Shown: positions 6,283 to 64,000, counted from the first letter of the stretch. The stretch: 64,000 bases of DNA from Dehalococcoidia bacterium (GCA_011191875.1 DUFC01000031.1:42879-106878); one strand, 5' to 3'. A program made the numbers and translations. The notes: a model not told the origin generated them from the sequence alone.

Positions 6283-8058
6283 ATGATACCAGACAAAGAT
6301 AAGACAAAAGAGCAACTCGTAGATGAGATGGCAGTGTTGTGCCAACGAATTGCTGAACTCGAAATATTAGAAACCAAGCGCAAGTGGGCGGAGCAGAGGC
6401 TAGAACATCTCAACGCTGTGTTGCGTACCATCCGTAAAGTTAACCAGCTCATTGCCAGGGAAAAGGACCCCGACAGGCTGCTTGAAAGCATCTGCGACAG
6501 CTTCATTATAACCCGCGGTTACTATAACATCTGGATTGCTCTGCTCGATGAGTCACAAAGGCTCTTGGTGACTGCTGAAGCCGGTTTGGGTAAAGCTTTC
6601 TTGCCAATGGTTAAACGGCTGAAGCGTGGTGAGTTGACCATTTGCGGGCAGAGGGCACTGCTACAATCAGACGTTGTCGTAACCGAAGACCCATTTTCAT
6701 CCTGTACTGACTGCCCACTGGCGAATAAGTACAGTGGTAGAGGGGCGTTAACTATCCGCTTGGAACACGGCGGAAAGGTCTATGGACTATTATCTGCCTC
6801 TATCCCCGCCGCTCTCATCGCAGACGAGGAAGAACAAGCCTTGTTCCAAGAAATCGCCAAGGATATCACTCTCGCCTTGCATGACATAGAATTTGAGGAG
6901 GAATACAAGCAAGCGGAGGAGGAAATACAAATCCAAAGAGCACGTTTTGAATCTATATTTGAGCGTTCCCTTGAAGGCATAGTAACTCTCGATATAAATA
7001 ACAACATCCTAGAGGCAAATACGGGATTTGAGAATATTTTCGGGTATAAGCGTAAAGAAATTATAGGAAAGCGTCTCGATGACCTCATAGTGCCCGAACG
7101 CTTTTATTCTACGGAAGCCAAAGAACTCGATAAAATGGCTTTGGATGGAATCCTTAGCAACGAGACAATTAGGAAAAGGAAAGACGGAACAGAAATAAAT
7201 GTTTCTATGTCTGCGGGACCAATAGAAACAGGTGAAGAGATTGGAGGACTCTTTGTAATTTTCCGTGATATTACCGAGCGGAAGCAGGCAGAGGAGAGAG
7301 AGAAGCAGCTACAACAAGAGCTTTATCTGTCCAGCCGGTTAGCCTCTATTGGCGAGTTGTCTGCCGGTGTTGCCCACGAGATAAATAACCCTCTCACCGG
7401 TATACTGGGATTTTCTCAACGCCTGTTGAGAAAAAGTACTGACGAGAAAGTCAAGCAGGATTTAGAAAGGATACATAATGAAGCTCTGCGGGCGGCCAAG
7501 GTGGTGGAGAATCTCCTTGCCTTTGCCCGTCAGACTAAGCCAATGAGGGAACATTTAGACATAAATGATATTGTGCAAAAGACTCTGGAGCTAAGGGCTT
7601 ACGAACTAAAAACGGGTAATATTAAAGTTGCATTAGACCTCGCCCCTAGCCTCCCCAAGATAATAGTCGATTCTCATCAGATGCAGGAGGTCTTTTTGAA
7701 CATCATTCTCAATGCTGAGCAGACTATGACTGAGGCCAGCCGCGGGGGAAAGCTCACTATTAAAACCCAAGAGACGAAAGGCTATATAAGAATTTCGTTT
7801 GGCGATGATGGTCCCGGGATTGCAGCCGAACACCTGGACAAGCTCTTCGACCCCTTCTTCACCACCAGAGGGGAAAACGGTGGTACCGGCTTGGGGCTAA
7901 GTGTCTGTCATGGTATTGTGGTAGAGCATGGTGGCAAGATGATTGCCAGAAGCAAACCGGGAAGAGGAGCCACTTTCTTTGTTGAATTGCCCACTGCAAC
8001 TGAAGAGATAGACGAGAGCAAGATTATATACAGACAGCCCGTCCGCGGGAGTAAATAA
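6283..8058 (+). CDS. Soluble sensor histidine kinase (coiled coil, GAF-like, PAS, HisKA, HATPase_c)
   Basis: The ORF track start 6196 overlaps the previous gene, so I prefer the in-frame ATG at 6283 (MIPDKDK). The H-box is SAGVAHEINNPL and the G-boxes are GDDGPGI and GGTGLGLS. A PAS region (FESIFERSLEGIVTLD...FRDITERK) and a GAF-like region with a CTDC pair are present. No TM helices are evident. Confidence 0.85.
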   Translation: MIPDKDKTKEQLVDEMAVLCQRIAELEILETKRKWAEQRLEHLNAVLRTIRKVNQLIAREKDPDRLLESICDSFIITRGYYNIWIALLDESQRLLVTAEAGLGKAFLPMVKRLKRGELTICGQRALLQSDVVVTEDPFSSCTDCPLANKYSGRGALTIRLEHGGKVYGLLSASIPAALIADEEEQALFQEIAKDITLALHDIEFEEEYKQAEEEIQIQRARFESIFERSLEGIVTLDINNNILEANTGFENIFGYKRKEIIGKRLDDLIVPERFYSTEAKELDKMALDGILSNETIRKRKDGTEINVSMSAGPIETGEEIGGLFVIFRDITERKQAEEREKQLQQELYLSSRLASIGELSAGVAHEINNPLTGILGFSQRLLRKSTDEKVKQDLERIHNEALRAAKVVENLLAFARQTKPMREHLDINDIVQKTLELRAYELKTGNIKVALDLAPSLPKIIVDSHQMQEVFLNIILNAEQTMTEASRGGKLTIKTQETKGYIRISFGDDGPGIAAEHLDKLFDPFFTTRGENGGTGLGLSVCHGIVVEHGGKMIARSKPGRGATFFVELPTATEEIDESKIIYRQPVRGSK

Positions 8059-8076
8059 GTACATCCACCTTTCCTT

Positions 8077-8133
8077 GTCATTGCAGTGAGCCGAAGCCCT
8101 GAGTGTAGCGAAGGGGAAGCGAAGCAATGTCAT
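8077..8133 (+). repeat. Interspersed repeat, type A (GTCATTGC...GAAGCAAT), copy 1
   Basis: gtcattgcagtgagccgaagccctgagtgtagcgaaggggaagcgaagcaatgtcat. It matches the reverse complement of 10523-10585 with about 5 mismatches and one 11-nt indel (manual alignment). Confidence 0.8.
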
Positions 8134-8150
8134 GGTTGTCCCCCTCCTCC

Positions 8151-8195
8151 GGGATTGCTTGGTCGTCCTTCCGCTGAAGGACCCCTCACAAAGAC
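8151..8195 (+). repeat. Interspersed repeat, type B (GATTGCTT..TCCTTCC-N-GAAGGA..), copy 1
   Basis: gggattgcttggtcgtccttccgctgaaggacccctcacaaagac aligns with 31171-31215 at about three quarters of positions. It contains a GTCCTTC/GAAGGAC hairpin. Confidence 0.65.
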
Positions 8196-8231
8196 AAGAG
8201 GAAGAAGCTTCTCACAAGGACGAAAAGGAAT

Positions 8232-8280
8232 GTCATTGCTCCTTCAAAGAAGGACTCGGTAGAAGGACGTGGCAATCTCT
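8232..8280 (+). repeat. Related GTCATTGC...GGCAAT hairpin repeat (TCCTTC/GAAGGA core)
   Basis: gtcattgctccttcaaagaaggactcggtagaaggacgtggcaatctc shares the GTCATTGC end and the TCCTTC..GAAGGA core with the other copies. Confidence 0.55.
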
Positions 8281-8286
8281 CACAGT

Positions 8287-8784
8287 TTAGGCTTCTAGAT
8301 TAAGAAGATAGCTTTTCCATTCTAGTCCCCCACTGTAGCCACCGAACTTACCATCGGTAGTTATTACCCGATGACAGGGGATAACGATAGGTAGAGGATT
8401 TCTGGCTAGAGCCTGCCCCACCGCCCGTACTGCCTCTGGTCTATTAATCTGCCCAGCCACCCAGACATAACTTCTGGTCTCACCGTAAGGGATGAGCCTG
8501 GTTACTTCCCATACCTCACGCTGAAAGGCAGTAGCCCCTGACAGGTCAAGCTCGTCTGGAAAGGTTATCCTATGACCATCAAAGTAAATCCTGAGGCGCT
8601 GGACCAGGTCATCAAACAAGTACGGAGCCCAGGTGGCACAGTTTACGCTGTCACCTAATAGTTGATGCACTGCTTGAGCTGAGCGCTGGGGCAGGGTGGT
8701 ACGCAGTAGCCCCCTTGCCGAGCCTAACATGCCTACCCAACCTATATCAGTATCAAAGGCGGTGTATTTTAACTCCCCAGTCAC
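8287..8784 (-). CDS. ogt: Methylated-DNA--protein-cysteine methyltransferase (Ogt/MGMT)
   Basis: 165 aa with the active-site motif IPCHRV and a C-terminal GGYSGGLEWKSYLL. Confidence 0.85.
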   Translation of the reverse strand: MTGELKYTAFDTDIGWVGMLGSARGLLRTTLPQRSAQAVHQLLGDSVNCATWAPYLFDDLVQRLRIYFDGHRITFPDELDLSGATAFQREVWEVTRLIPYGETRSYVWVAGQINRPEAVRAVGQALARNPLPIVIPCHRVITTDGKFGGYSGGLEWKSYLLNLEA

Positions 8785-8788
8785 AGTA

Positions 8789-9334
8789 TTACCCTAGCTC
8801 AGGCTCAATCAGACCGTAGTTGCCATCCTTTCGTCGGTATAACAGATTAAGTTCTTCAGTATCAGCATTAAGGAACAGGAAGAAATCATGACCCAAAAGC
8901 TCCATCTGGTCTATGGCTTTAGCCATTGACATTGGCTTAACGGCAAAACGCTTAACCTTCACTATATCTTGGGTAGGTTTTACTGCCTCTACTTCTTCGC
9001 TGAATTTACCTCGGGCAAACGAGTTACCCCTCCCCTTTTCATATAGTTTCCCCTTGTAGTGCTTGATTTGCCGATTCATAACCTCCACTACCTTATCAAT
9101 GGCAGTGAACAGGTCTTGCCCTCTCTCTTCACCACGAAGTCGGGTGCCGCTACTATGTATAGTTACCCGCACTACAAAGCGCTGCTGGGGGGATTTTGTC
9201 TTTTCTTCAGAGATTTCTACCCTGGACTCAACAATATTAGGTAGATAACGGTTAAGCTTGCCTAACTTGCGCTTAATGTAGCCATGCACTGCCGGTGATA
9301 AGTCTATATTCTTACCTGTTATCTGTAACTCCAT
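8789..9334 (-). CDS. hpf: Ribosome hibernation promoting factor, long form
   Basis: 181 aa. The N-terminal MELQITGKNIDLSPAVHGYIKRKLGKLNRY is typical of the S30AE/HPF family, and the C-terminal dimerisation extension is present. Confidence 0.9.
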   Translation of the reverse strand: MELQITGKNIDLSPAVHGYIKRKLGKLNRYLPNIVESRVEISEEKTKSPQQRFVVRVTIHSSGTRLRGEERGQDLFTAIDKVVEVMNRQIKHYKGKLYEKGRGNSFARGKFSEEVEAVKPTQDIVKVKRFAVKPMSMAKAIDQMELLGHDFFLFLNADTEELNLLYRRKDGNYGLIEPELG

Positions 9335-51441: not shown

Positions 51442-51519
51442 GGTGAGTGTCGCCTAGTGGTCTAAGGCGCCAGGTTGTGGCCCTGGAGAACGAGGGTTCA
51501 AATCCCTCCACTCACCCCA
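51442..51519 (+). tRNA. tRNA-His (anticodon GTG), with encoded G-1 and CCA
   Basis: Manual cloverleaf. The 8-bp acceptor GGTGAGTG/CACTCACC has the extra G-1:C73 pair diagnostic of tRNA-His. The D stem is GCCT/AGGC, the anticodon stem CCAGG/CCTGG with loop TTGTGGC, and the T arm GAGGG-TTCAAAT-CCCTC, followed by CCA. Confidence 0.9.
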
Positions 51520-52494: not shown

Positions 52495-52504
52495 TTAATT
52501 GAGT

Positions 52505-52580
52505 GCGCCTATAGCTCAGCGGACAGAGCATCGGTCTTCGGAACCGAGGGTCGTGGGTTCGAATCCCTCTAGGCGCGCCA
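52505..52580 (+). tRNA. tRNA-Arg (anticodon TCG), CCA encoded
   Basis: Manual cloverleaf. The acceptor is GCGCCTA/TAGGCGC, the D stem GCTC/GAGC, and the anticodon stem TCGGT/ACCGA with loop CTTCGGA. The T arm GTGGG-TTCGAAT-CCCTC has one U-U mismatch. It ends in GCCA. Confidence 0.88.
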
Positions 52581-52758
52581 GTATCAAGATAAAAGCTCCT
52601 AAGCTATCGACAATTATTAAATACCACCCCAGGGAGAAATGGAAACTCACTCCTCGGGGCGGTTGTGCTTTTTGCCAGTTGAACCGAGACTTAAGGCTTC
52701 AAGACGCTAATACTACTTTTATCCAGTCCTGGGAACTGGGCAAGATGATACCTGGTAT

Positions 52759-54651
52759 CTATACAAAGGAGGCAGGCTTGATATAATCTCCATATTTCTC
52801 TCTAGCCTTGATTAATCTCTGCCTTTGCTCTTCAAACACTTTGAATACTATTGGCGGCGTATCAGTAACCCTGGTCTTGTATATCTCCGTTAATCTATCG
52901 AGCTTGGCTAAGTTTTCTGGAACCCTTATTGTGAACTGCATATTATAATCTTTCTTAGAATAGTCTTGACCGAGCGTTTCTTTGAATAGCTTTACCAGGT
53001 CTCCATATTTTGGTATAAAACCAGTGGGTGTTTCTATTGCATCAACTTCCTTATGGGCACGCAGTTCCATCCATTTAAGCCAAACTCGTTTAGCGTATTT
53101 ATCATTCAAGAAATCCCCGTCAGAGCCTCTCAAGAAGTAATTCACAGAGAAGATGAGAGGTGGATTGGGTAAGTCAGTGCCAAAATTCAGGTTACCTGCA
53201 ACATACTTACCTATGGGTATGGAGAGGAAGTCCAGATTTGACATAGGGTTAAAGGTTCTAACCCCTTCTTTTCCCAAGGTGGCAGCGGTAGTTTCTGATT
53301 CAAGAGCGGCACCTTTAATTATGATGCCATGTTGCCAGCTAAAAGACTCCTCTACCGGTACCAAGGTGTCCGAATCGCGACCTCCATAGATTATTCCGCT
53401 GACCATGACACCATCAGGGTCGTTAAGCTTTGGATCCAAATTCTCTAAATGCTTAATGTCAAGGGTAAAACGTGCGTTTTTGTGTGAAGGTGATATCTCC
53501 TTACCCTCAGCATCCTTCTTCCCAGGAGTCCATTCTCCTGAGTGATTGATACCCTTCTTTGGGGCTTCTCCATCCTTACCAATCCAATAGACACCTTTCT
53601 CCTCGGTAACCAGTACATTTGAAAATATAATCTCACCCGGCGTGTGAAGTGTCTTCCATACTATAGCGTCATCTTTAGAGTTAACGCCTTGTATTATGCC
53701 AAACATTCCCCTTTCTACATTGACGGCGTGTACTTCCCCGTCCTTTTTCCTAATATAGGCAATGTCATCTCCGACTATGGTCTCACCTTCTATCATGGCA
53801 GTGGAAGTCTTTCCACACATAGAAGGAAAAGCTCCTAAGAGATAACTCACCCTGCCTTTTGGACCATGCACACCCATAATCAGCATATGCTCCGTGAGCC
53901 AACCTTCCTTTGATGCTCTATTTATGGCGAGACGCATTGCTAATTTCTTAAGCCCGATAGTATTGCCACCATATTGAGTGTTCGTGCTATATATGGTCTC
54001 ATCTTTGAGGTCAATGTATATTCTACGCTTGTCAATATTTTTACTTACTTCTAACCCAAGCCCTGCCGGCTGTAGCTCCCCTTGAGAATGCACAAACTTA
54101 AAGAACTGCTTATAATCGCCTAATCTCTTGAATTCCTCATATCCCGGTCTATACAATAGGTCCTCACTATGCGCCACATAGGCGGAATCAGTAAGCTGGA
54201 TACAAGGGATAGTAAATTCAGAATTAATAGGACCTAAGCAAAAGAATCGTACATATAACTCGTGCCCCCGCATAATGTTTTTAAGAATCTGGTAAATTTC
54301 TTTGAGTCCTTCGTCTCTATCCATTGAATTAATCTCAGGACCTAGAGCCACACCCTTGGGTATAAGAAATTTCGTAGTTTCTTTATCTCTGGCTTGGTCG
54401 TAATAGCCGTCAAAATGAATAGTGTGACCTTTTAGAGCAAGTTCTGCCTCCCCTCTATCTCTTACCGCCGATTGCCTGATATAGTTAATATCTTCTGCGG
54501 AGTCAGTTGAGACAAAAACTCTATCAGGATTACAAAGCTCCACATACTTGGCGATAAACTGATTTAGCTTGGGATTATTTATCCTGTCAAGTTTCTGGTA
54601 GCCCTCTTGCCCTAATCTGGTTTTAAGTATATTCTTAGCTTTTTCATTCAT
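52759..54651 (-). CDS. pckG: Phosphoenolpyruvate carboxykinase (GTP)
   Basis: 630 aa. The kinase-1a motif is FPSMCGKTS, and the overall N- and C-terminal sequence is typical of GTP-dependent PEPCK. Confidence 0.9.
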   Translation of the reverse strand: MNEKAKNILKTRLGQEGYQKLDRINNPKLNQFIAKYVELCNPDRVFVSTDSAEDINYIRQSAVRDRGEAELALKGHTIHFDGYYDQARDKETTKFLIPKGVALGPEINSMDRDEGLKEIYQILKNIMRGHELYVRFFCLGPINSEFTIPCIQLTDSAYVAHSEDLLYRPGYEEFKRLGDYKQFFKFVHSQGELQPAGLGLEVSKNIDKRRIYIDLKDETIYSTNTQYGGNTIGLKKLAMRLAINRASKEGWLTEHMLIMGVHGPKGRVSYLLGAFPSMCGKTSTAMIEGETIVGDDIAYIRKKDGEVHAVNVERGMFGIIQGVNSKDDAIVWKTLHTPGEIIFSNVLVTEEKGVYWIGKDGEAPKKGINHSGEWTPGKKDAEGKEISPSHKNARFTLDIKHLENLDPKLNDPDGVMVSGIIYGGRDSDTLVPVEESFSWQHGIIIKGAALESETTAATLGKEGVRTFNPMSNLDFLSIPIGKYVAGNLNFGTDLPNPPLIFSVNYFLRGSDGDFLNDKYAKRVWLKWMELRAHKEVDAIETPTGFIPKYGDLVKLFKETLGQDYSKKDYNMQFTIRVPENLAKLDRLTEIYKTRVTDTPPIVFKVFEEQRQRLIKAREKYGDYIKPASFV

Positions 54652-54828
54652 TATTTACCCCTACCCTTACATTTAGTAGCTTAACATTCTTGGCTAGATA
54701 TTCTATACGCCTACTAGCCCCTTTTCAACTTTATTCCTATTCCATGCGCCCCAGTGAGCAGCCTTTGTATCCTTCTTTTTCAAGGAAGCGCCAGCTAGCA
54801 AAGAGCAATAAAGGGAGCTAACTTATCT

Positions 54829-55110
54829 CTAGTCACCAACTCGCAACCTGCCCCAAATGGCAACAGCCCGCGCCAGTGAACAGACGCTATCCAAGCTCGG
54901 TTTATTGCCTCCAGAGAAACAGAATTTCATGTAATTACTTAGCATCAATCCGCCCACTCCCTCAATAGCCGAGCGCGCTGCTCCCAACTGAGTAACAATA
55001 CTCTCGCAATCGCGACCTTGTTCTATCATCTTCTGAATACCGCGAATCTGCCCTTCTATCCTTTTGAGGCGCTTGACCAAGTTGTCAACCGATACTGCTT
55101 CTTCTGCCAT
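54829..55110 (-). CDS. CsoR/RcnR/FrmR-family (DUF156) transcriptional repressor with non-canonical ligand set
   Basis: 93 aa. LVKRLKRIEGQIRGIQKMIEQGRDCESIVTQLGAARSAI is the family signature. It has Cys in RDC and Cys in MKFC, but Tyr/Asn where CsoR carries the His of the C-H-C triad. Confidence 0.8.
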   Translation of the reverse strand: MAEEAVSVDNLVKRLKRIEGQIRGIQKMIEQGRDCESIVTQLGAARSAIEGVGGLMLSNYMKFCFSGGNKPSLDSVCSLARAVAIWGRLRVGD

Positions 55111-55146
55111 TTTACCCTCCGTAGTAAATTAGGCTCATCTACTCTC

Positions 55147-55176
55147 TTGACATACCCTCTCTCTGTAGGGTATTAT
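55147..55176 (+). promoter_or_regulatory. Promoter for the fdhAB-Moco operon, overlapped by a CsoR-type operator palindrome
   Basis: TTGACA (55147-55152), an 18-nt spacer, then TATTAT (55171-55176). The spacer contains the inverted repeat ATACCCT-N8-AGGGTAT (55152-55173). On the minus strand, a TATAAT (complement of 55177-55172) overlaps the same palindrome upstream of the repressor gene. Confidence 0.55.
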
Positions 55177-55389
55177 ACGCTAATGCTGCCACCTATTTTA
55201 CCACATAACATGCCTCAGGTAATAGATTTTCGCCTAAAGAGAGGGTTATAATACACAAGTTTGAATTAGAGATAGGCTGAGATTGGAATGGCTCTCGGCA
55301 TCCGAGGCACTGAAGATAGCTGAGACATTTAAAAAATTATACCCAAATTATCAAAGGGCTTGCTTCAAGCCCGCTTAACAGGAGGTGAA

Positions 55390-57420
55390 ATGAGCATTGA
55401 ATACCTACCCACCATATGTCCTTACTGTAGTTGTGGCTGCGGACTATATCTCATAGTAAAGGATGGCAAGATAATCGGGCAGGAGCCGTGGAAGGAGCAC
55501 CCAATAAATGAAGGAGCAAACTGTCCTAAGGGTAAGAATGCCTACGCTTTCCTCTACAGTGAAGATAGGCTGAAGATGCCACTGGTGAGAAAGAACGGTG
55601 CCTTTCAGGAAACCTCTTGGGAGGAGGCTCTTAACCTCATCTCGTCCAAACTAAAGGAAGCTACCCCAGAAAACTTTGGCTTTATCGCCTCATGCCGGAA
55701 TAGTAATGAGGACGCTTATGTGATGCAGAAGTTTACCCGGGTGGCGATGGGCACCAATAATATAGAATACTGCGGTCGACTGTGTCATTCCCCGGCAGCG
55801 GCTGCCCTAATTCCTGCCATGGGCGGAGGGGTAATGCAGACCTCTCAGCCTGAAATTGAGCTTGCCGACTGTTTCTTCCTTGCCGGCGTTAATCTGCAGG
55901 AGACCTTTCCCATGATAGCCCGGAGAGTATTCCGCGCCAAGGACAAGGGAGCTAAGGTTATTTATACTGACCCCAGAAAGACGGCTACGGCGAGGCACCT
56001 AGCTGACATCAACCTGCACCTGAAGTCGGGCACGGATGCAGCCCTAATCAACGCCATGATGCGAATCATCCTAGATGAGGGGCTGGAGGATAAAGAGTTT
56101 ATTGCGTCAAGGACAACCGGTATTGATGAATTACGCGATTTTCTGTCTAAAGTAGACTTAGAGGAGGCGGAAAGGATTACCGGCATTCCCTTGGAAAAGA
56201 TAAAGGAAGCGGCAATTACCTATGCCAAGGCAGAGACAGCATGCATTCTCTATGACCAGGGTATGTCCCAGCATTATGTTGGCACCGACAATGTCAGGGT
56301 TCACGCTAATCTTGCTCTTCTCTGCGGGCATGCTGGTAAGCCAGGGAGTGGGATAAACTCAATGAGAGGGCAGATAAACGGTGAGGGCAGTGGAGATATG
56401 GGTTGCCTATGTGTTTTCTACCCCGGATTCAAGCGCGTGGGTGAGGATTCGGCAAAGTTATTTGAGGAAGCATGGGGAGTGAGCAACCTGCCCACCAAGC
56501 CTGGCTTCACGTACATAGACATGCTGTATAAATGCTCTTACCTCTATATAGTTGGGGGAGACCCAATGATGGTCACTCCCGATGTTAATAATCTGAAGAA
56601 GGCTTTAGAGAAGGTTAATTTCCTGGTGGTTCAGGACATATTCCCCACTGAGATAAGCAAGCTCGCCCATGTGATACTACCGGCAGCTAGCTGGGTGGAG
56701 AGGGAGGCTACCCATACCTGGATAGACAGACGGGTGCAGAAGATAGACAAGCTTATTGACCCCCCTGGCGAAGCCAAGCCCGACTGGTGGATTATATGCC
56801 AGTTAGCTGAAAAGCTGGGCTACAAAGATAAATTCAACTTCACTTCATCTGGGGAGATATTCGAGGAAATAAGAAGCTGCATTCCCCCGTATAAGGGCAT
56901 AACCTACGAACGGCTGAAGAAGACGGTGGGAGGAATTCACTGGCCCTGCCCTTCAGAGGACCATCCCGGCACACCCTCCATGTTCTTGCAGAAGTTCAAT
57001 ACCCCTGATGGTCTGGGACACTTCCAAGCGGTGGAGTTTAAGCCCCCTGCTGAATTACCCGATGACGAGTATCCGTATGTCCTGACCACAGGCAGAAGTA
57101 TCTTCCATTACCATACCGGAGCAATGACGCGGAGAACGCCAAAGCTAGTTGATGAGGTTCGCCGCGGTTTCGTTGAGGTTAACCCCGAGGATGCCACTAA
57201 GGCTGGGGTTAAAGACAAGGATATAGTTACTCTGGAGACAAGGCGGGGTAGCATAGAAGTTGAAGTTAAGGTGACCGATGAGGTGCCACCAGGACTACTA
57301 TTTGTCCCCTTCCACTTTGCTGATTCCTGTGCCAATGTGCTAACAATCCCAGTACTTGATCCCAGCGCCAAGTGCGCTGAAACCAAAGTATGCGCCGTCA
57401 AGATGGAGGTGAAACAATGA
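55390..57420 (+). CDS. fdhA: Molybdo/tungstopterin formate dehydrogenase alpha subunit, cytoplasmic, Cys-type (FdhA, methanogen-like)
   Basis: I prefer the ATG at 55390 (MSIEYL), which is preceded by GGAGGTGAA. The N-terminal 4Fe-4S motif is CPYCSCGCG...C. The active-site stretch GTNNIEYCGRLCHSPAAAAL has Cys (codon 55783-55785) where selenoprotein FDHs have Sec. There is no Tat signal. 676 aa. Confidence 0.85.
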   Translation: MSIEYLPTICPYCSCGCGLYLIVKDGKIIGQEPWKEHPINEGANCPKGKNAYAFLYSEDRLKMPLVRKNGAFQETSWEEALNLISSKLKEATPENFGFIASCRNSNEDAYVMQKFTRVAMGTNNIEYCGRLCHSPAAAALIPAMGGGVMQTSQPEIELADCFFLAGVNLQETFPMIARRVFRAKDKGAKVIYTDPRKTATARHLADINLHLKSGTDAALINAMMRIILDEGLEDKEFIASRTTGIDELRDFLSKVDLEEAERITGIPLEKIKEAAITYAKAETACILYDQGMSQHYVGTDNVRVHANLALLCGHAGKPGSGINSMRGQINGEGSGDMGCLCVFYPGFKRVGEDSAKLFEEAWGVSNLPTKPGFTYIDMLYKCSYLYIVGGDPMMVTPDVNNLKKALEKVNFLVVQDIFPTEISKLAHVILPAASWVEREATHTWIDRRVQKIDKLIDPPGEAKPDWWIICQLAEKLGYKDKFNFTSSGEIFEEIRSCIPPYKGITYERLKKTVGGIHWPCPSEDHPGTPSMFLQKFNTPDGLGHFQAVEFKPPAELPDDEYPYVLTTGRSIFHYHTGAMTRRTPKLVDEVRRGFVEVNPEDATKAGVKDKDIVTLETRRGSIEVEVKVTDEVPPGLLFVPFHFADSCANVLTIPVLDPSAKCAETKVCAVKMEVKQ

Positions 57421-58619
57421 AGGGAGATATGTATATCGCCCATTCCACAGATAAGGAGATACTAGAAAAAGCCGAGTATGGTGGCGTGGTTACTTCTCTG
57501 CTCAAGTTTGCCCTGGAGAGTGGGAAAGTAGACGCTGTGCTTGCCGTAAAAGCTAGAGATGGCAACAGGTACGACGGTGTACCCGTTCTAATCACTAAAC
57601 CGGAGGAAGTAATAGAAACCACGGGAGCACTGCATTGTGCCTCGCCCAACATCGCACGCTTTCTCAAGGAATACCTTGATGGCGCCTCCGACCTGAAGAT
57701 AGCCGTTACCGTCAAGCCATGTGACGCTAAGGCAATTATTGAGCTCGCCAAGAGAACCCAGATTGACCTTAATAACTTGCTCCTTATTGGCTTGAACTGC
57801 ACCGGCACCCTACCCCCAGCCAAGGCAACGACAATGATGAAAGTGGAGTTTGAAGTAGACCCGAATGATGTCGTTGCTGAGGATATTGAAGACAATAAAT
57901 TAACAATAAGGTTAAAGGATGGGACAGAAAAGGAGAAGAACCTGACCGAGCTTGAGGAGCGGGGATATGGGAGGCGAGAGAATTGCCGTAGATGTGAGAC
58001 CAATATCCCAGTAATGGCCGATATCACCTGCGGTAAGTGGGGAACTACCGACAACAATACAACTTTCATTGAGGTTTGCTCGGAAAGAGCGTCTGACTTC
58101 ATCACGGCGGCAATTGAAACTGGCAAGATTAAGGTGGAACAACCAAGCAGCGATGCTATAGAAACCAGAAGTAAGAAGGATGAGGCAGCAATAGAACTGG
58201 CACGGCAATGGCAGGAGAAGGATTTTGCCAGTCTCAAAGAAATGAGCAGTGACGAAAGGCAAAATTACTGGTCTGAGCAATTCAGCCGCTGTATTAAGTG
58301 TTACGGGTGCCGAGATGCCTGCCCCATATGCTACTGCAAGCACTGCTATCTGGAGGCAGATAGAGGCTTGGTGACTGGGGGAGAGGTTCCGCCCGACATT
58401 ATCTTCCCTATGGTAAGGAGCTTCCATGTTATGGACTCGTGTGTTAATTGTGGGCAGTGCCAGGATGCCTGCACCATGGAGCTTCCTCTTTCCCGCTTGA
58501 TATTCATGCTTAATAGGGAACTGGTTAGCATTTTTAATTATGAGCCGGGAATGGACGTAGAACAACTTCCTCCATTGAAAACAGTCCCCAACCAAGAGTT
58601 GAGTCGCAGTAGTGCTTGA
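57417..58619 (+). CDS. fdhB: FrhB/FdhB-family flavin (F420-type) and 2x[4Fe-4S] subunit (FdhB)
   Basis: The ATG at 57417 overlaps the fdhA stop (ATGA) and follows GGAGGTG. The N-terminal EYGGVVTSLLKFALESGKVDAVL and the FrhB-type core are present. The C-terminal cysteine clusters are CIKCYGCRDACPICYC and CVNCGQCQDAC. Confidence 0.8.
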   Translation: MKGDMYIAHSTDKEILEKAEYGGVVTSLLKFALESGKVDAVLAVKARDGNRYDGVPVLITKPEEVIETTGALHCASPNIARFLKEYLDGASDLKIAVTVKPCDAKAIIELAKRTQIDLNNLLLIGLNCTGTLPPAKATTMMKVEFEVDPNDVVAEDIEDNKLTIRLKDGTEKEKNLTELEERGYGRRENCRRCETNIPVMADITCGKWGTTDNNTTFIEVCSERASDFITAAIETGKIKVEQPSSDAIETRSKKDEAAIELARQWQEKDFASLKEMSSDERQNYWSEQFSRCIKCYGCRDACPICYCKHCYLEADRGLVTGGEVPPDIIFPMVRSFHVMDSCVNCGQCQDACTMELPLSRLIFMLNRELVSIFNYEPGMDVEQLPPLKTVPNQELSRSSA

Positions 58620-58680: not shown

Positions 58681-59280
58681 ATGACCTCAATTGTTCTTGC
58701 TGGTGGCAAAAGCCTACGGCTAGGTAAGAGTAAGTGTCTGGAGACCATTAACGGTAAAAGCCTGATTGAGCGGGTTATAGAACGGGTCAAATCAGTGAGC
58801 AGGCGAACCCTGATAGTGACCTCCCGAGAACAGATTGACTTTCCCGCCCCTTGTGAAGCAGAAGTAGTGGTAGACATTTATCCCGGCAAAGGACCACTTG
58901 GGGGAATATACACAGGCTTGCTAGCTTCTGAGTCTTCACACGTCCTTGCGGTTGCCTGTGATATGCCTCTTCTAAATATTGAACTGTTGCGCTATATGAT
59001 TGAACTATCCCCCGGCTTTGATGCAGTTGTCCCCCGATTAGGCGAAAGAAAGGTGGAGCCACTCCACGCTATATATGCCAAGTCCTGCCTGGATAATATG
59101 AAAACACGGTTGGAGCATAACCAATTGGAAATTAGCCGCTTCCTTAACACAGTACACGTTAGATATATTGAACGGCCAGAATGCCAGAAATTCGACCCCC
59201 AGCTTTTAACCTTCTTCAACATAAATTCTCAGTCAGACCTAGACCAAGCTATCACACTCGCTACAGAGAATAAAAGTTGA
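58681..59280 (+). CDS. mobA: Molybdenum cofactor guanylyltransferase
   Basis: 199 aa with the N-terminal VLAGGKSLRLG and DxxxGPLGG motifs. Confidence 0.85.
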   Translation: MTSIVLAGGKSLRLGKSKCLETINGKSLIERVIERVKSVSRRTLIVTSREQIDFPAPCEAEVVVDIYPGKGPLGGIYTGLLASESSHVLAVACDMPLLNIELLRYMIELSPGFDAVVPRLGERKVEPLHAIYAKSCLDNMKTRLEHNQLEISRFLNTVHVRYIERPECQKFDPQLLTFFNINSQSDLDQAITLATENKS

Positions 59281-59309
59281 CTTGGTAGAGACTATCTAGT
59301 ATCGTTTAA

Positions 59310-60008
59310 GTGACATTGGTTATGACTGTGAATAGGGTTAGTCCGTTAGTAATTGCTGTAGTGGGAAACTCCGATGCTGGCAAGACTACCCTGATAGAAC
59401 ACTTACTCAGGGAGCTCAGCCGGAGAAAGCACAGGGTGGCAGCGGCAAAGCACTGTCCCCATGGGTTTAACCTGGATGTTGAAGGGAAAGATACCTGGCG
59501 CTTCACAGAAGCGGGGGCAAGGGGAGTATTTCTTACCTCACCCGGTCTAGTTGGGCTCATTGAGGAGAAGGAGCCTGTTCCCGGGCTAAGAAATATTGCC
59601 GAGCACTACTTTGCTGACTTCGACATCGTGCTTGGTGAAGGATTTAGTCAAGAGAAAGAGGTAAGAAAGATACTGGTGCTCAGGGAAGGGGGTAGCAAGC
59701 GTGTCCCTTATCCACAAGGTGATATCCTGGCTCTGGTAAGCGATTTTGAGATAAAAGCGGATAAGCCCTTATTTAAACCCGATGATGTGTCCGGCATAGC
59801 TAACTTTATTGAACAGTTTCTTATTCAGGAGGATAGAATGGAAACATCAGTTACACTTATCATCAATAAAAAGCCAGTCCCACTAAATCCCTTTGTTCAG
59901 AGCGTCTTTAAGAATGTAATCGTAGGGGTTATAGGTGCTCTTAAGCGAGAGGATGAAGAATTGAATCAGATTGAAGTAATAATTAAGTCAGAGGATGACG
60001 ACGGGTAA
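59310..60008 (+). CDS. mobB: MobB-like P-loop protein with ~60-aa C-terminal extension
   Basis: 232 aa with the P-loop VVGNSDAGKTTL and KH..HG. It has an extra C-terminal segment (VTLIINKKPVPLNPFVQ...). The start may be the ATG at 59322. Confidence 0.75.
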   Translation: MTLVMTVNRVSPLVIAVVGNSDAGKTTLIEHLLRELSRRKHRVAAAKHCPHGFNLDVEGKDTWRFTEAGARGVFLTSPGLVGLIEEKEPVPGLRNIAEHYFADFDIVLGEGFSQEKEVRKILVLREGGSKRVPYPQGDILALVSDFEIKADKPLFKPDDVSGIANFIEQFLIQEDRMETSVTLIINKKPVPLNPFVQSVFKNVIVGVIGALKREDEELNQIEVIIKSEDDDG

Positions 60009-60017
60009 AAGGGGTTA

Positions 60018-60521
60018 ATGGGATATCAAGAGCACAAACACAAGGCACCCAAGAGCATAAGCTGTGCTGTCCTCACCATCTCTGATACCCGAACCGAACG
60101 GGATGACGAATCAGGCAGACTCATCAGGCAAAAACTCAGTGAAACTGGTCACCGGGTAATATTGCATTGTATTTTGAAAAACGAGGCGGACTCTATCAGG
60201 GAAAAGATATATGAACTCCTGAAAGAGGAGGAGCTTCAAGCCATTATTGCCACTGGCGGTACCGGAGTAAGCCGCAGGGATATTACTGTAGAGACAATAT
60301 ACCCCATTCTCGAGAAGAAGCTGGATGGCTTCGGAGAGCTTTTTCGGTTCTTAACCTATAGTGAGATAGGCACCGGCAGTATTATGAGTAGAGCCATTGC
60401 TGGTGTAGCCGAGGGAAAGGTTATTCTTTGTCTCCCTGGCTCCCTTGAGGCGGCAAAACTGGCGATGAACAAGATAATCCTACCTGAACTCGGGCACTTA
60501 GTTATGGAGGCAACAAGGTGA
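60018..60521 (+). CDS. moaB: MoaB/MogA-family molybdopterin adenylyltransferase-like protein
   Basis: 167 aa. TISDTR...GGTGVSRRDIT is the MoCF_biosynth pattern. Confidence 0.8.
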   Translation: MGYQEHKHKAPKSISCAVLTISDTRTERDDESGRLIRQKLSETGHRVILHCILKNEADSIREKIYELLKEEELQAIIATGGTGVSRRDITVETIYPILEKKLDGFGELFRFLTYSEIGTGSIMSRAIAGVAEGKVILCLPGSLEAAKLAMNKIILPELGHLVMEATR

Positions 60522-61723
60522 AACCTTTTGGAGCACTTCTTGCCTTTGAGGAAGCAAAAAGGGTTATTGACGTCAACATAAAGCCAATCGCAAGAACAGA
60601 GATAGTCAACATTGACGACTCCCTGGGGAGAGTTCTGGCTAAAGAGGTTGTTGCTACTTTAAGCACACCCCCCTTTAGTAGAGCAGCTATGGATGGTTAT
60701 GCTGTTAAAGCCAGAGATACCTTTAATTCCAGCCAATTAAATCCCAAAGTGCTTGACCTAATTGGTGAATTACATGCCGGGCAAACACCCCAGAAGAGGG
60801 TGAGCCCCGGTGAGTGCATTCAAATTGCTACCGGGGCAATGATGCCTAAGGGTGGGGATGCTGTGGTTATGGTTGAGGATACCGAAAAGGAAAACAAGAG
60901 AGTAAAGGTATTCAAGTCAGTCTACCCAAAAGCTAACATGGCTAAAAAAGGGGAGGACATCAAAGAAGGAGAGCTTATTCTAAGGCGCAACTTTATCTTG
61001 GACCCAGGGAGGATTGGGGTGCTCGCCTCTCAAGGGATAAACCGAATCAGAGTCTATAAAAAACCGAAAGTAGCTATAATCCCTACCGGGGAAGAGGTAT
61101 GTGAGGTTGATAAAAGGTTAAGGAAAGGGCAAGTCTACGATATTAACTCCCATACTATCGCCTCAGTGGTAAGGGCAAATAGTTGCCTTCCCACCAAGTT
61201 CGGTATCGTCGGCGATGACGCCGAGGAGCTCAAATCAACAATTACCGAAGCTCTAAAAAGTGACCTTGTGGTTATCTCAGGAGGCTCCTCTGTAGGAGAG
61301 AGAGACCTGTTATCTGATGTCCTTCAGAACCTGGGTGAGATTCTCTTTCATGGAATTCAAGTCAAACCGGGGAAACCAACCATTTTTGCTATGATACAAG
61401 GTAAACCTATCCTGGGAATGCCCGGCTATCCTACTTCTTGTCTGATTAATACCTATCTCTTCCTTTTACCAGCGATAAGAAAGATGGCTCACCTGCCGCC
61501 GAGGAGAAAGGAGATGGTTGAGGCTAAGCTTTCCCGGAGAGTCCCCGGAAGCGTGGGTCGAAGACAATTTTTAACCGTCAAGCTCGATGGAAGTGATGCC
61601 ATTCCTATGTTTAAAGAATCGGGGGCGATAACCAGCATAGCCGAGGCGGATGGCTACATTGAGATAGCCGAGAATGTTGATTTGCTAGAGAAGGGCGAGC
61701 CAGTTACGGTAATACTGTTCTAA
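60518..61723 (+). CDS. moeA: Molybdopterin molybdenumtransferase
   Basis: 401 aa with a GTG start overlapping the moaB stop. MoeA N, MoCF (SGGSSVGERD) and C-terminal domains are present. Confidence 0.9.
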   Translation: MKPFGALLAFEEAKRVIDVNIKPIARTEIVNIDDSLGRVLAKEVVATLSTPPFSRAAMDGYAVKARDTFNSSQLNPKVLDLIGELHAGQTPQKRVSPGECIQIATGAMMPKGGDAVVMVEDTEKENKRVKVFKSVYPKANMAKKGEDIKEGELILRRNFILDPGRIGVLASQGINRIRVYKKPKVAIIPTGEEVCEVDKRLRKGQVYDINSHTIASVVRANSCLPTKFGIVGDDAEELKSTITEALKSDLVVISGGSSVGERDLLSDVLQNLGEILFHGIQVKPGKPTIFAMIQGKPILGMPGYPTSCLINTYLFLLPAIRKMAHLPPRRKEMVEAKLSRRVPGSVGRRQFLTVKLDGSDAIPMFKESGAITSIAEADGYIEIAENVDLLEKGEPVTVILF

Positions 61724-61732
61724 ACTATCTCC

Positions 61733-62218
61733 TTACTTTTTCTCTTTCTTCCGGTAAGTCCCACTTTTCCCGCCCTTTTTGCTTTCCAGGTATATTTCGG
61801 CAATAGTCATCTCTCGGTCTAAAGCCTTGCACATGTCGTAGATGGTCAAGGCAGTGACTGAGACAGCAACCAAAGCTTCCATCTCCACCCCCGTTTTGCC
61901 GGTGCTCTTTGCCTTAGCGGTGATTCCTATAGAGTCATCCCTAGCTAAATCAAAGTCAATAACGATATTACCAATCAATAATGGATGACACAGGGGTATC
62001 AAGTCGGGCGTCTTTTTTGCCGCCATTATACCAGCAACCCTGGCTACAGACAGAACATCTCCCTTTTCCAACCCAGCCTTCCTAATTTGCTCCAGAGTGG
62101 CCAGCTTCATCATTACCCTGCCTCTGGCTACTGCTTCACGTTCGGTGTCAGCCTTCTGACTAATATCAACCATTTGAGCCTCACCCTTTGAGTCTACATG
62201 AGTTAGCTTAGTCATCAT
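61733..62218 (-). CDS. moaC: Cyclic pyranopterin monophosphate synthase accessory protein
   Basis: 161 aa. KLTHVDSKGEAQMVDIS.K, IPLCHPL and TGVEMEAL are typical MoaC. Confidence 0.9.
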   Translation of the reverse strand: MMTKLTHVDSKGEAQMVDISQKADTEREAVARGRVMMKLATLEQIRKAGLEKGDVLSVARVAGIMAAKKTPDLIPLCHPLLIGNIVIDFDLARDDSIGITAKAKSTGKTGVEMEALVAVSVTALTIYDMCKALDREMTIAEIYLESKKGGKSGTYRKKEKK

Positions 62219-62254
62219 TCCCCTCCTCTATTTTCAATTCTCCAATCAGAAGCC

Positions 62255-63241
62255 CTAGCCTCCTATCTGACACATCGGCCGCCTCACTATCCCCGGGGCA
62301 AGCCCTCCGGTCAGTTGATGCCGCTCCCGCTTAATGGCAACTGCCTTTTGGATAAGCTGTTTTATCTCATCCACGCTGGCTCCATTACGTAGCGGCTCCT
62401 TCAAGTTGACCTCATCATCGTCTAGGAGGCAGGGGCGTAACTGCCCATCGGAGGTAAGACGAAGGCGATTGCAACTGTGGCAGAAGTGCTCGGTTACCGG
62501 GGTGATGAAACCTATAGTACCCCTCGCCCCAGGCAGTCGGTAATACTTGGCAGGACCATTGCCTGTTTTACCGGTATAAGGCTCCAGTTTGCCTAGAGAC
62601 TGAATGCGTTCCTGAATTTCCTGGGCAGACACCGTCCCCAAGGCTTCGACCTGTGGCGTCCCAAAAGGCATAAATTCTATAAACCTCACATGCCATCCTT
62701 GGCTGGTGCTCATTCCAGCGAAATCAACAACTTCATCGTCGTTCATGCCCCGTAGAACCACCATGTTTATCTTGACGGGCTGTAGTCCAGCCTCATGTGC
62801 TGCCTCGATACCAGAGAGCACCTCTCCTAATTTATCCCTGCCAGTAATGCGCTTGAACCTATCCTTTTTTAGCGTGTCCAGACTTACATTAACCCGTTTC
62901 AGCCCAGCCTCTTTCAGCTCAACAGCGTATTTACTTAGAAGAGTGCCGTTACTAGTAAGCGAGATATCGTCGATGTCCTCTATCTGGGAAAGCATCCTGA
63001 CTAATCTACTCACATTAGGCCTCAACAGAGGCTCACCACCGGTAAGACGCACTTTGCTGATGCCCATACTGGCAGCTGCCTGAACTATGTGTTGGATTTC
63101 CTCATAGGAGAGGACTTCACTTCGGGGCAAGAGGGACACCGAACCCACCGAGCAATAGATGCAGCACAAATTGCAGCGGTCAGTAACAGAGATTCGCAGG
63201 TAGTTAATCTGGCGTTGAAAAGAGTCGAAAAGACCGGTCAT
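62255..63241 (-). CDS. moaA: GTP 3',8-cyclase (radical SAM)
   Basis: I prefer the ATG at 63241 (MTGLFDSFQR), preceded by GGAGGGGAAG and overlapping the upstream stop (ATGA). The motif is LRISVTDRCNLCCIYC, and the C-terminal CxxCxRxRL is CHSCNRLRL. Confidence 0.9.
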   Translation of the reverse strand: MTGLFDSFQRQINYLRISVTDRCNLCCIYCSVGSVSLLPRSEVLSYEEIQHIVQAAASMGISKVRLTGGEPLLRPNVSRLVRMLSQIEDIDDISLTSNGTLLSKYAVELKEAGLKRVNVSLDTLKKDRFKRITGRDKLGEVLSGIEAAHEAGLQPVKINMVVLRGMNDDEVVDFAGMSTSQGWHVRFIEFMPFGTPQVEALGTVSAQEIQERIQSLGKLEPYTGKTGNGPAKYYRLPGARGTIGFITPVTEHFCHSCNRLRLTSDGQLRPCLLDDDEVNLKEPLRNGASVDEIKQLIQKAVAIKRERHQLTGGLAPGIVRRPMCQIGG

Positions 63242-64000
63242 CTTCCCCTCCTGACTATATGGACACCTGTAGCTTTGAAGGTGGCACAAACTTTCTTTGT
63301 CCTGGTTAAATTCAACTCCTCGGCTGACCTTTTGGTTACTAGAGCAACTAGCCGGAAACCACAGTTTATCTCAATGCGGCTGAGTGGACCAAGTGATACT
63401 ACCTGAGTTATTTCCCCAAAGAACGAGTTCCTAGCACTACTTGAAACTCTTGATAGCGCCAGTATTATATCCTCTGGCCTAACACAAGCACAAACCTCTT
63501 CTCCTACGGCGTAATCTGAAATCGCCTCTATAACCCCACTACCAATATCTATAGTAACTACCTTATCCTGGCTTGACACTATCACCCCGTCTATAATATT
63601 CTCAACGCCTACGAACTCGGCTACCTCCCTATTTAGGGGGGAACTGAATACATCCCTTGGAACTCCTGTTTGAAGGATTTCACCATTTATGAGCACACCT
63701 ATTCTATCAGCCAGCCGCTGACCCTGGGACATATCGTGGGTAGCCATTATTATCGTAGTGTCATACCGGTGAATAATATTTGCTACCAATTCCTCAATTT
63801 TTGATGTCGAAATCGGGTCAAGGTTTGCTGTAGGTTCATCCAGTAGCAATACCTCCGGTTCGTTCACTATTGCTCTGGCTATAGCTACCCTTTGTACTTC
63901 GCCACCGGATAATGTTCTAGCGTTGCTCTTTCTATAAGCTAAGAGGTCAACCATCTCCAGAATATTGCTGACCTTTTTTCGGATGCTACTTTCCCTTACC
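63238..64000 (-). CDS. ABC transporter ATPase with C-terminal TOBE/Mop domain (ModC/WtpC/TupC-like), 5' end outside window
   Basis: The frame stays open to the window edge (VRESSIRKKVSNILEMVDLL...). It has the signature LSGGEVQRVAIARA, Walker B LLLDEPT and a TOBE-like C-terminus (FFGEITQVVSLGPLSRIEINCG). Confidence 0.75.
   Translation of the reverse strand, partial: VRESSIRKKVSNILEMVDLLAYRKSNARTLSGGEVQRVAIARAIVNEPEVLLLDEPTANLDPISTSKIEELVANIIHRYDTTIIMATHDMSQGQRLADRIGVLINGEILQTGVPRDVFSSPLNREVAEFVGVENIIDGVIVSSQDKVVTIDIGSGVIEAISDYAVGEEVCACVRPEDIILALSRVSSSARNSFFGEITQVVSLGPLSRIEINCGFRLVALVTKRSAEELNLTRTKKVCATFKATGVHIVRRGR

Follow-up and report, generated by a model that had tools for sequence, protein, structure and literature searches.

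The 64,000-nucleotide stretch analysed here (the window; Dehalococcoidia bacterium, GCA_011191875.1, DUFC01000031.1:42879-106878) encodes a small protein of the CsoR/RcnR/FrmR superfamily, the gene of which is divergently oriented to fdhA, the gene for the alpha subunit of a formate dehydrogenase (FDH). A palindrome between the two genes overlaps the promoter predicted to serve fdhA. A comparison with related loci, designated by L numbers, makes it highly probable that regulator, palindrome and promoter form a repressor-operator-promoter module dedicated to FDH. The features concerned are the following:

54829-55110, minus strand: regulator gene, CsoR/RcnR/FrmR superfamily, 93 amino acids (PF02583 match, conserved residues, predicted fold)
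55111-55389: regulator-fdhA intergenic region, 279 bp, between divergent genes
55115-55120, minus strand: GGAGGG, ribosome-binding site for the regulator gene, with 4 nt between it and the ATG (a GGAGG-like element is found there in relatives)
55147-55176, plus strand: predicted promoter toward fdhA, coinciding with a 30-nt conserved block (promoter scan, comparison of 24 loci)
55152-55173: putative operator ATACCCT-N8-AGGGTAT, a variant with a long spacer (family consensus, ATACCCTATGGGGGTATGGTAT)
55195-55203, minus strand: extended -10 TGG TAAAAT toward the regulator, TGGTAAAAT, conserved in most relatives
55251-55277, plus strand: remnant of the 5' end of flpD (MvhD/FlpD-like) in the fdhA leader (alignment with L002)
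55380-55385, plus strand: ribosome-binding site of fdhA, AGGAGG
55390-57420, plus strand: fdhA, FDH alpha subunit, Cys type (RLCHS; TIGR01591, Pfam, active-site Cys)
57417-58619, plus strand: fdhB, FrhB/FdhB-type (F420-type) beta subunit, 400 amino acids (PF04422, PF04432)
58681-61723, plus strand: mobA, mobB, mog and moeA, for maturing the cofactor bis-MGD (bis-molybdopterin guanine dinucleotide; Pfam NTP_transf_3, MobB, MoCF_biosynth, MoeA_N/C)

The regulator, MAEEAVSVDNLVKRLKRIEGQIRGIQKMIEQGRDCESIVTQLGAARSAIEGVGGLMLSNYMKFCFSGGNKPSLDSVCSLARAVAIWGRLRVGD (translation of 54829-55110, minus strand), matches the PF02583 (DUF156) profile with an E value of 2.7e-23 and 82.6 bits (cutoff 22.8). In an AlphaFold2 model built from 32 homologues (mean predicted local distance difference test score 80.7), helices extend over residues 8-30, 35-65 and 73-87, and helix 2 has Cys35 at its N-terminus. 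The model thus has the three-helix protomer and the Cys opening helix 2 by which the superfamily is recognized, and its top structural matches in a Foldseek search were InrS, Streptococcus pneumoniae CstR (SpCstR), FrmR and CsoR. The NCBIfam models of individual branches scored far below their cutoffs: RicR 55 bits (cutoff 175), FrmR (NF008464) 38 bits (133) and RcnR (NF011613) 27 bits (138).

A preliminary description of the locus had pointed to a pair of cysteines, a Tyr four residues before the second one, and the lack of His and Pro2, all of which is borne out by the sequence. Cys35 is located in GRDCES, and Tyr60 and Cys64 in NYMKFC; none of the 93 residues is His, and residue 2 in the N-terminal MAEE is not Pro. 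HMMER alignment with the solved CsoR, CstR and InrS structures assigns Cys35, Tyr60 and Cys64 to the X, Y and Z positions of the sensing motif, so that Tyr rather than His is found at Y. This residue is His in 4m1p (Geobacillus CsoR), 5fmn (InrS) and 6ahx, and Asn55 in SpCstR (7mq1). Asp34 precedes Cys35; SpCstR likewise has RDC, the Cu sensor 4m1p RYC. Identity among the solved structures is greatest to SpCstR (7mq1/7mq2, 39-45%).

A homologue search yielded 557 sequences at E <= 0.001. The best 120 of the 557, from which identities and lengths were taken, are 65-91% identical to the regulator and mostly 93-97 residues long, and those with a named source are all from Dehalococcoidia. In an alignment of 32 homologues, no variation is seen at Cys35, Asn59, Cys64 and Trp86 or in the RLKxxEGQ helix, at least 90% of the sequences share Tyr60, and only small residues (Ala, Thr, Val, Ser or Pro) occur at position 2. 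The third Cys of the regulator, Cys77, is not conserved. The x-C-x-C fingerprint proposed earlier is therefore real, here in the form x-C-Y-C, and is conserved across the aligned homologues.

Probable operator and promoters in the intergenic region

The arms of the palindrome, ATACCCT (55152-55158) and AGGGTAT (55167-55173), are separated by 8 nt. They lie within a promoter facing fdhA, identified by a promoter scan, that consists of a -35 element TTGACA (55147-55152), an 18-nt spacer and a -10 element TATTAT (55171-55176), with 11 of 12 consensus matches; this arrangement had been described previously, and both the elements and their coordinates were confirmed. The exact sequence ATACCCT-N8-AGGGTAT occurs once in the 64-kb window, with no second copy, and up to two mismatches are found in two places where 0.30 would be expected.

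Upstream regions of subfamily loci were collected from the encoding contigs, GTDB genomes and metagenomes, and 24 loci, with regulators 57-82% identical to that of the window, were compared. A 30-nt block, which reads ATTATACCCTATGGGGGTATGGTATATCAA in the orientation of the regulator, is conserved in register 24-52 nt before the regulator start codon, with 1.50 bits per position relative to 0.24 and 0.17 in the 30-nt flanks. Its reverse complement, TTGAYA-N18-TATAAT, is a near-consensus sigma-70 promoter directed away from the divergent regulator. The operator occupies the spacer between -35 and -10 of this promoter, which is always directed at FDH genes: flpD-fdhAB, an FDH-N-type alpha subunit exported by the twin-arginine route, or genes for maturation of the molybdenum cofactor. 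Most relatives have ATACCC-N5-GGGTAT followed by a second GGTAT, and the arms of the family consensus accordingly comprise one on the left (ATACC) and two in tandem on the right (GGGGGTAT, GGTAT). The window site retains neither the G-tract nor the inner right arm, which have decayed to CAGAGAG, and its outer arm now reads AGGGTAT, a change that results in a perfect 7+7 repeat with an 8-nt spacer. Intermediate forms occur in the closest relatives on long contigs, L005 (ATACCCTACGGGGAGAGGGTAT; regulator 82% identical) and L002 (ATACCCTACAGGGGGAGGGTGT; 76%). The palindrome of the preliminary description thus stands as the operator site in the fdh promoter and as the local form of an operator conserved across relatives, but the long spacer is confined to this lineage (N8/N10), the relatives having mostly N5.

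An operator weight matrix, gapless and made from the relatives only, gave a single strong site in every locus in which it scored any. This site invariably separates regulator and FDH genes, and the scan of the window and of the loci of 18 relatives revealed no extra copies. Short-spacer operators, such as those of L016, L017 and L106, are invisible to such a matrix and were found by eye. Two loci with deviating layouts indicate that the site belongs to the fdh promoter and not to the gene of the regulator. Regulator and fdh have the same direction in L014, and there CTTGACATACCCTACCCCCGTTGGGTATAAT follows the regulator stop codon and precedes fdh. In L177 (5447-6000), where FDH has been lost from beside the regulator, the left half of the operator is degenerate (TTTACACCATATAGGAGTATGGTATATTAA). 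The DNA upstream in L177 resembles a fragment of an ABC ATPase gene.

Taken together, the comparisons of these sequences argue strongly for the operator. The window site itself scores 19.9 bits with the matrix, relative to 27-40 bits in the relatives and best scores of up to 18.0 bits in 20 shuffled windows. By itself the palindrome is only marginally above chance and is weak evidence; it is judged to be real because of the positional conservation among the relatives.

The style of the operator does not separate Cu sensors from persulfide sensors, since the subfamily core ATACCC-N5-GGGTAT resembles a cst operator and presumably also the Bacillus subtilis copZA operator. The former, from Streptococcus mitis, ATATACCCTTATGGGGTATAT, was used in CstR binding assays and has the same architecture as the subfamily core (PMC8643695).

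The regulator is likely transcribed from the extended -10 at 55203-55195 (minus strand). Most relatives have the motif TGnTAnAAT upstream of the operator, at a distance that varies from 18 to 40 nt, and it is frequently accompanied by a CTGACA -35. Counted from the transcription start predicted for this promoter, the operator would lie at about +15 to +36 of the regulator transcript. The minus-strand TATAAT at 55177-55172, previously taken for the repressor promoter, had to be given up, as in relatives it is merely the reverse complement of the fdh -10.

Alignment of the window with the regulator-flpD intergenic region and flpD start of L002 showed that 55100-55277 is homologous to that region together with the initial 27 nt of flpD. 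At 55251-55253, the ATG that starts flpD has changed to ATA, and L005 has the identical change, whereas most relatives retain an intact flpD between regulator and fdhA. This lineage thus lost flpD, and fdhA was left behind a leader some 200 nt long. With flpD, the link of FlpD to an Hdr-type complex has been lost as well. A riboswitch in the 279-bp region was considered and rejected: Rfam gave no match at the gathering threshold, and a scan of 54700-55500 under permissive settings returned nothing but noise (E > 7). A structured fdhA leader was likewise rejected, as its 218 nt fold no better than shuffled sequences (z 0.14). An identical regulator occurs on 17 contigs. In the four longer ones, from different samples, gene order and intergenic region are 100% identical, and these four regions are hence uninformative on population variation.

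Predicted regulon and sensing motif among relatives

The fdhA product is assigned by TIGR01591 (763 bits, cutoff 666) and by the Pfam domains Molybdop_Fe4S4, Molybdopterin and Molydop_binding. The fdhB reading frame opens at 57390, and the start at 57417 fits the 400-residue calls in L169-L172, contigs with the identical regulator. As this start overlaps the end of fdhA by a few bases, the two genes are likely translationally coupled. The co-directional mobA-mobB-mog-moeA genes are probably in the same operon.

Adjacency of the regulator and FDH genes is conserved in at least 20 distinct relatives and involves three FDH types, as the comparative genomics suggested in the preliminary description revealed. 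The operator-proximal genes are:

L002, L006, L009, L016, L092, L094, L097, L098, L099, L101, L173, L175: flpD-fdhA-fdhB
This window: fdhAB directly
L013, L010, L011, L089, L090, L095: alpha subunit of FDH-N type, exported by twin-arginine translocation (TAT)
L005: mobA-mobB-mog-moeA, fdhAB deleted
L100 (1260-5885): flpD-DsrE-flpD-HdrA-like flavoproteins in place of fdhAB
L015: rhodanese, followed by a CxxCH protein and an Fe-S protein resembling FDH beta

The L013 alpha subunit matches TIGR01553 with 1021 bits (cutoff 814); L010, L011, L089, L090 and L095 were grouped with it by their TAT signal and weak FdhA similarity, not by a TIGR01553 score. The gene order of L100 suggests that a sulfur-carrier/Hdr-like module is placed under the same regulator. 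Neither copA/copZ nor a P-type ATPase gene adjoins any subfamily locus examined. Judged by its neighbourhoods, the subfamily is associated with three FDH architectures and bis-MGD maturation rather than with genes for copper, nickel or the detoxification of sulfide.

In L002 and L005, an NAD-type FdhF is additionally encoded in convergent orientation to the regulator. The L005 FdhF (~7920-7945, minus strand) contains an in-frame TGA at the active site, CARL*HSPT, probably for selenocysteine, and the L002 FdhF (6306-9017) has a Cys, CARLCHAST. Switching between selenium isoforms found no support: the operator-proximal FdhA proteins examined are all of the Cys type, and the TGA is found only in the convergent FdhF of L005.

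The sensing motif was surveyed in 168 loci gathered by peptide motifs of the PF02583 family. The X-Y-Z residues are C-H-C in 72, C-Y-C in 61 and C-N-C in 14. Cys X is preceded by Tyr in almost every C-H-C protein and mostly by Asp or Glu in C-Y-C and C-N-C proteins. Within the subfamily, a few members outside the 32 aligned homologues have a Cys at 60: L016, L017 and L106 contain Cys at 35, 60 and 64 (C-C-C), and L015/L105 (6001-6309) contain Cys35 and Cys60 with Asn at 64. These variants imply that the partner Cys can move by one helical turn. A C-H-C paralogue is separately present in a Dehalococcoidia genome (L023).

C-Y-C also extends beyond the subfamily, to about 26 of the 61 loci (for example L024, L029, L062, L027, L154 and L120). 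The neighbours of these distant x-C-Y-C proteins are OsmC-like proteins, thioredoxin or, in L154, a TAT Fe-S protein and a cytochrome b561-HMA fusion. No characterization of this distant class was found in the literature.

Proposed mechanism and candidate effectors

In the superfamily, the reduced tetramer represses transcription and an event at the inter-subunit Cys site lowers its affinity for DNA (PMC8643695, PMC11672702, PMC5016687). By analogy, the reduced, unmodified regulator of the window would bind as a tetramer, a dimer of dimers, to the single operator at 55152-55173. Since the operator overlaps the -35/-10 region of the promoter of fdhA-fdhB-mobA-mobB-mog-moeA, the bound repressor would block RNA polymerase. 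It may also dampen its own synthesis, as the occupied operator, downstream of the extended -10 of the regulator, would act as a roadblock. Derepression would occur when Cys35 and Cys64' of neighbouring subunits are chemically modified as in CstR, so that DNA affinity falls. The trigger would be persulfide or polysulfide, which form di- to tetrasulfide bridges, or another thiol oxidant, and neither chelation of Cu(I) or Ni/Co nor a formaldehyde bridge. Tyr60 may correspond to the wedge Asn55 of CstR and keep the two thiols too far apart for metal chelation. In CstR, Asn55 lowers the Cu(I) affinity, and other x-C-x-C groups also lack this Asn (PMC11672702).

A thiol-reactive non-metal is the effector that we tentatively favour, and module and effector together form the account that we adopt with moderate confidence. 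The choice of the effector is based on the lack of His ligands, the RDC context, the bulky wedge residue and the plastic position of the second Cys, and in addition on the sulfur-carrier genes in the operons of L015 and L100 and the OsmC and thioredoxin genes beside the distant x-C-Y-C proteins. Every characterized x-C-x-C member is a persulfide sensor (PMC8643695).

One of the closest known systems is CstR of Staphylococcus aureus, Enterococcus faecalis, S. pneumoniae and S. mitis (clusters 4 and 10 of the sequence similarity network, PMC8643695). Shared with it are the PF02583 fold of about 90 residues, Cys at X and Z, the absence of His, the RDC context of the first Cys, a non-ligand wedge residue at Y and the ATACCC-N5-GGGTAT operator architecture overlapping the promoter. 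The subfamily differs in having Tyr60 at Y, with the invariant Asn59 beside it, instead of Asn55 (x-C-N-C), in a distinctive helix 3 (SLARAVAIWGRVRVGD, with the invariant Trp86), and in its occurrence in Dehalococcoidia rather than Firmicutes. Its regulon comprises FDH and molybdenum cofactor (Moco) maturation, not rhodaneses, coenzyme A-persulfide reductase or sulfide:quinone oxidoreductase, with L015 and L100 and their sulfur-carrier genes as exceptions.

Several observations weigh against the account adopted here. The residue at Y is Tyr and not the wedge Asn of CstR, and the sequence scores fail to separate CsoR from CstR (4m1p, E 3e-13; 7mq1, E 3e-12). In the C-C-C variants, the three cysteines might just as well make up a trigonal thiolate site that binds Cu(I) or some other thiophilic metal. 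Most neighbourhoods contain FDH/Moco genes without the sulfurtransferase, persulfide reductase or sulfide:quinone oxidoreductase of CstR regulons, and there is no obvious reason for an oxygen-sensitive FDH to be induced by sulfur or an oxidant. Finally, the window operator lacks the G-tract and the inner right half-site of most relatives, and repressor binding would be less certain there than at a consensus site.

A sensor of Cu(I) or another soft, thiophilic metal, with Cys35, Cys64 and a third ligand (Met61, or Cys60 in the C-C-C proteins), would place FDH and Moco synthesis under the control of metal stress. Like the Cu(I) sensors CsoR (Mycobacterium tuberculosis, B. subtilis, Geobacillus thermodenitrificans, Streptomyces lividans) and RicR, the regulator has the superfamily fold, Cys at X and Z and a pseudo-palindromic operator with a G/C core in the target promoter, and repression would be relieved by an event at the inter-subunit site. 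Geobacillus CsoR is its best sequence match among the solved structures (E 3.4e-13). The occurrence of Cys at X, Y and Z in L016, L017 and L106 and the cytochrome b561-HMA fusion next to the distant x-C-Y-C protein of L154 also agree with a metal, and some uncharacterized clusters have been proposed to be Cu sensors (PMC8643695). We nevertheless consider a metal improbable. In the regulator, Tyr replaces the Cu-ligand His at Y and Asp the second-shell Tyr before Cys35, and the score with the RicR model is low. The bulky Tyr occupies the CstR wedge position, which lowers Cu(I) affinity (PMC11672702). No subfamily member examined adjoins copA/copZ, the neighbourhood by which Cu sensors are recognized (PMC8643695), and the Dehalococcoidia genome of L023 has a separate C-H-C paralogue. 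RcnR (H-C-H-H) and InrS (H-C-H-C) have the same length and numbering as the regulator (Cys35, positions 60 and 64), as does FrmR, but the regulator lacks the His3, His60 and His64 found among them, and its score with the RcnR model is low.

Equally improbable in our estimate is a signal of FDH biogenesis, that is, Mo/W (thio)oxyanions, selenium bound in a selenotrisulfide bridge, or the persulfide flux that sulfurates the cofactor, by which enzyme and cofactor synthesis would be coupled to cofactor supply. Such a signal would suit a regulon of three FDH types plus mobAB-mog-moeA, the L005 operator that controls Moco genes only, and the surroundings in a Mo/W island, with moaA and moaC in the window and a TOBE-domain ABC transporter in L005. 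The cysteines of CstR are modified by selenite and tellurite in addition to sulfite (PMC5016687), and the neighbouring FdhF of L005 probably contains selenocysteine. Opposed to this are that oxyanion sensing is not known for any member of the CsoR family, that the operator-proximal FdhA proteins examined are of the Cys type, and that the regulator has no sequence feature specific to Mo, W or Se.

It is still less probable that the palindrome of the window is a decayed site or a chance occurrence and that fdhAB no longer responds to the repressor. The lost G5 tract and inner GGGTAT and the matrix score, closer to the shuffled windows than to the relatives, speak for this, and the flpD deletion attests to local remodelling in the lineage. 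However, the site is in exact register with the family footprint, the outer arms have improved to a perfect inverted repeat of a long-spacer form shared with L005, and the -35 and -10 elements are still near consensus. Moreover, four contigs obtained from different samples show no difference in regulator or intergenic region, and the regulator reading frame is intact with all conserved residues.

Least probable of all is an FrmR-like sensor of formaldehyde or another C1 aldehyde, in which a bridge from Cys35 to the N-terminal amine of residue 2 would switch on FDH as the last step of C1 oxidation: the numbering as in FrmR (Cys35; residues 10-72 aligned to FrmR 10-73), a residue 2 that is always small and from which Met1 is probably removed, the C1-metabolism regulon with its sound logic (formaldehyde to formate, which FDH then oxidizes) and the JGI label "FrmR family" of homologues are outweighed by the lack of Pro2 in most members, including this regulator (the P2S variant of FrmR loses sensitivity, PMC5016687), the absence of His60 of the P-C-H-x motif, an invariant second Cys that is foreign to FrmR, the low FrmR score and the lack of a frmA-like gene nearby.

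The signals known in the CsoR superfamily are Cu, Ni/Co, persulfide and formaldehyde. It appears rather unlikely, although less so than the alternatives above, that the subfamily is a dedicated FDH switch of Dehalococcoidia that answers to an effector new to the superfamily. Candidates would be the status of sulfur, selenium or Mo/W for the FDH cofactor, or a disulfide or persulfide electron acceptor of an FlpD/Hdr-linked FDH complex. If true, this would add a new class of inducers to the CsoR family and provide a first handle on formate/CO2 regulation in uncultured subsurface Chloroflexota.

Fold and operator logic follow a familiar pattern; new are the sensing motif, the regulon and probably the physiological signal. 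A full-text literature search for CsoR, FrmR or DUF156 together with FDH, Dehalococcoidia, Chloroflexi or tungstate/molybdopterin yielded no description of the pairing of a CsoR-type regulator with FDH, in agreement with the preliminary description, whose author knew of none. In the superfamily network of 2021, clusters 6-9 are uncharacterized and formate is unmentioned (PMC8643695). The subfamily is well delimited, with more than 550 sequences, its own x-C-Y-C motif, a clear operator and a previously unreported FDH/Moco regulon. Its hosts are uncultured sediment Dehalococcoidia, of whose gene regulation almost nothing is known. The promoter-operator pair could mark the regulon in metagenomes, and the identity of the effector could reveal which signal controls the oxidation of formate or the reduction of CO2 in these organisms.

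Remaining features of the window

Downstream of moeA, 61733-63954 (minus strand) contains moaC-like and moaA-like reading frames and an ABC-transporter ATPase. The whole right end of the window has the appearance of an island for the molybdenum/tungsten cofactor. An ABC_tran+TOBE protein and a permease are encoded at that end in the syntenic L005. The only Rfam matches at the gathering threshold in the window are two tRNA genes:

51443-51516: tRNA gene
52505-52577: tRNA gene

A 95-residue reading frame at 52499-52786 overlaps the second of these and is probably spurious.

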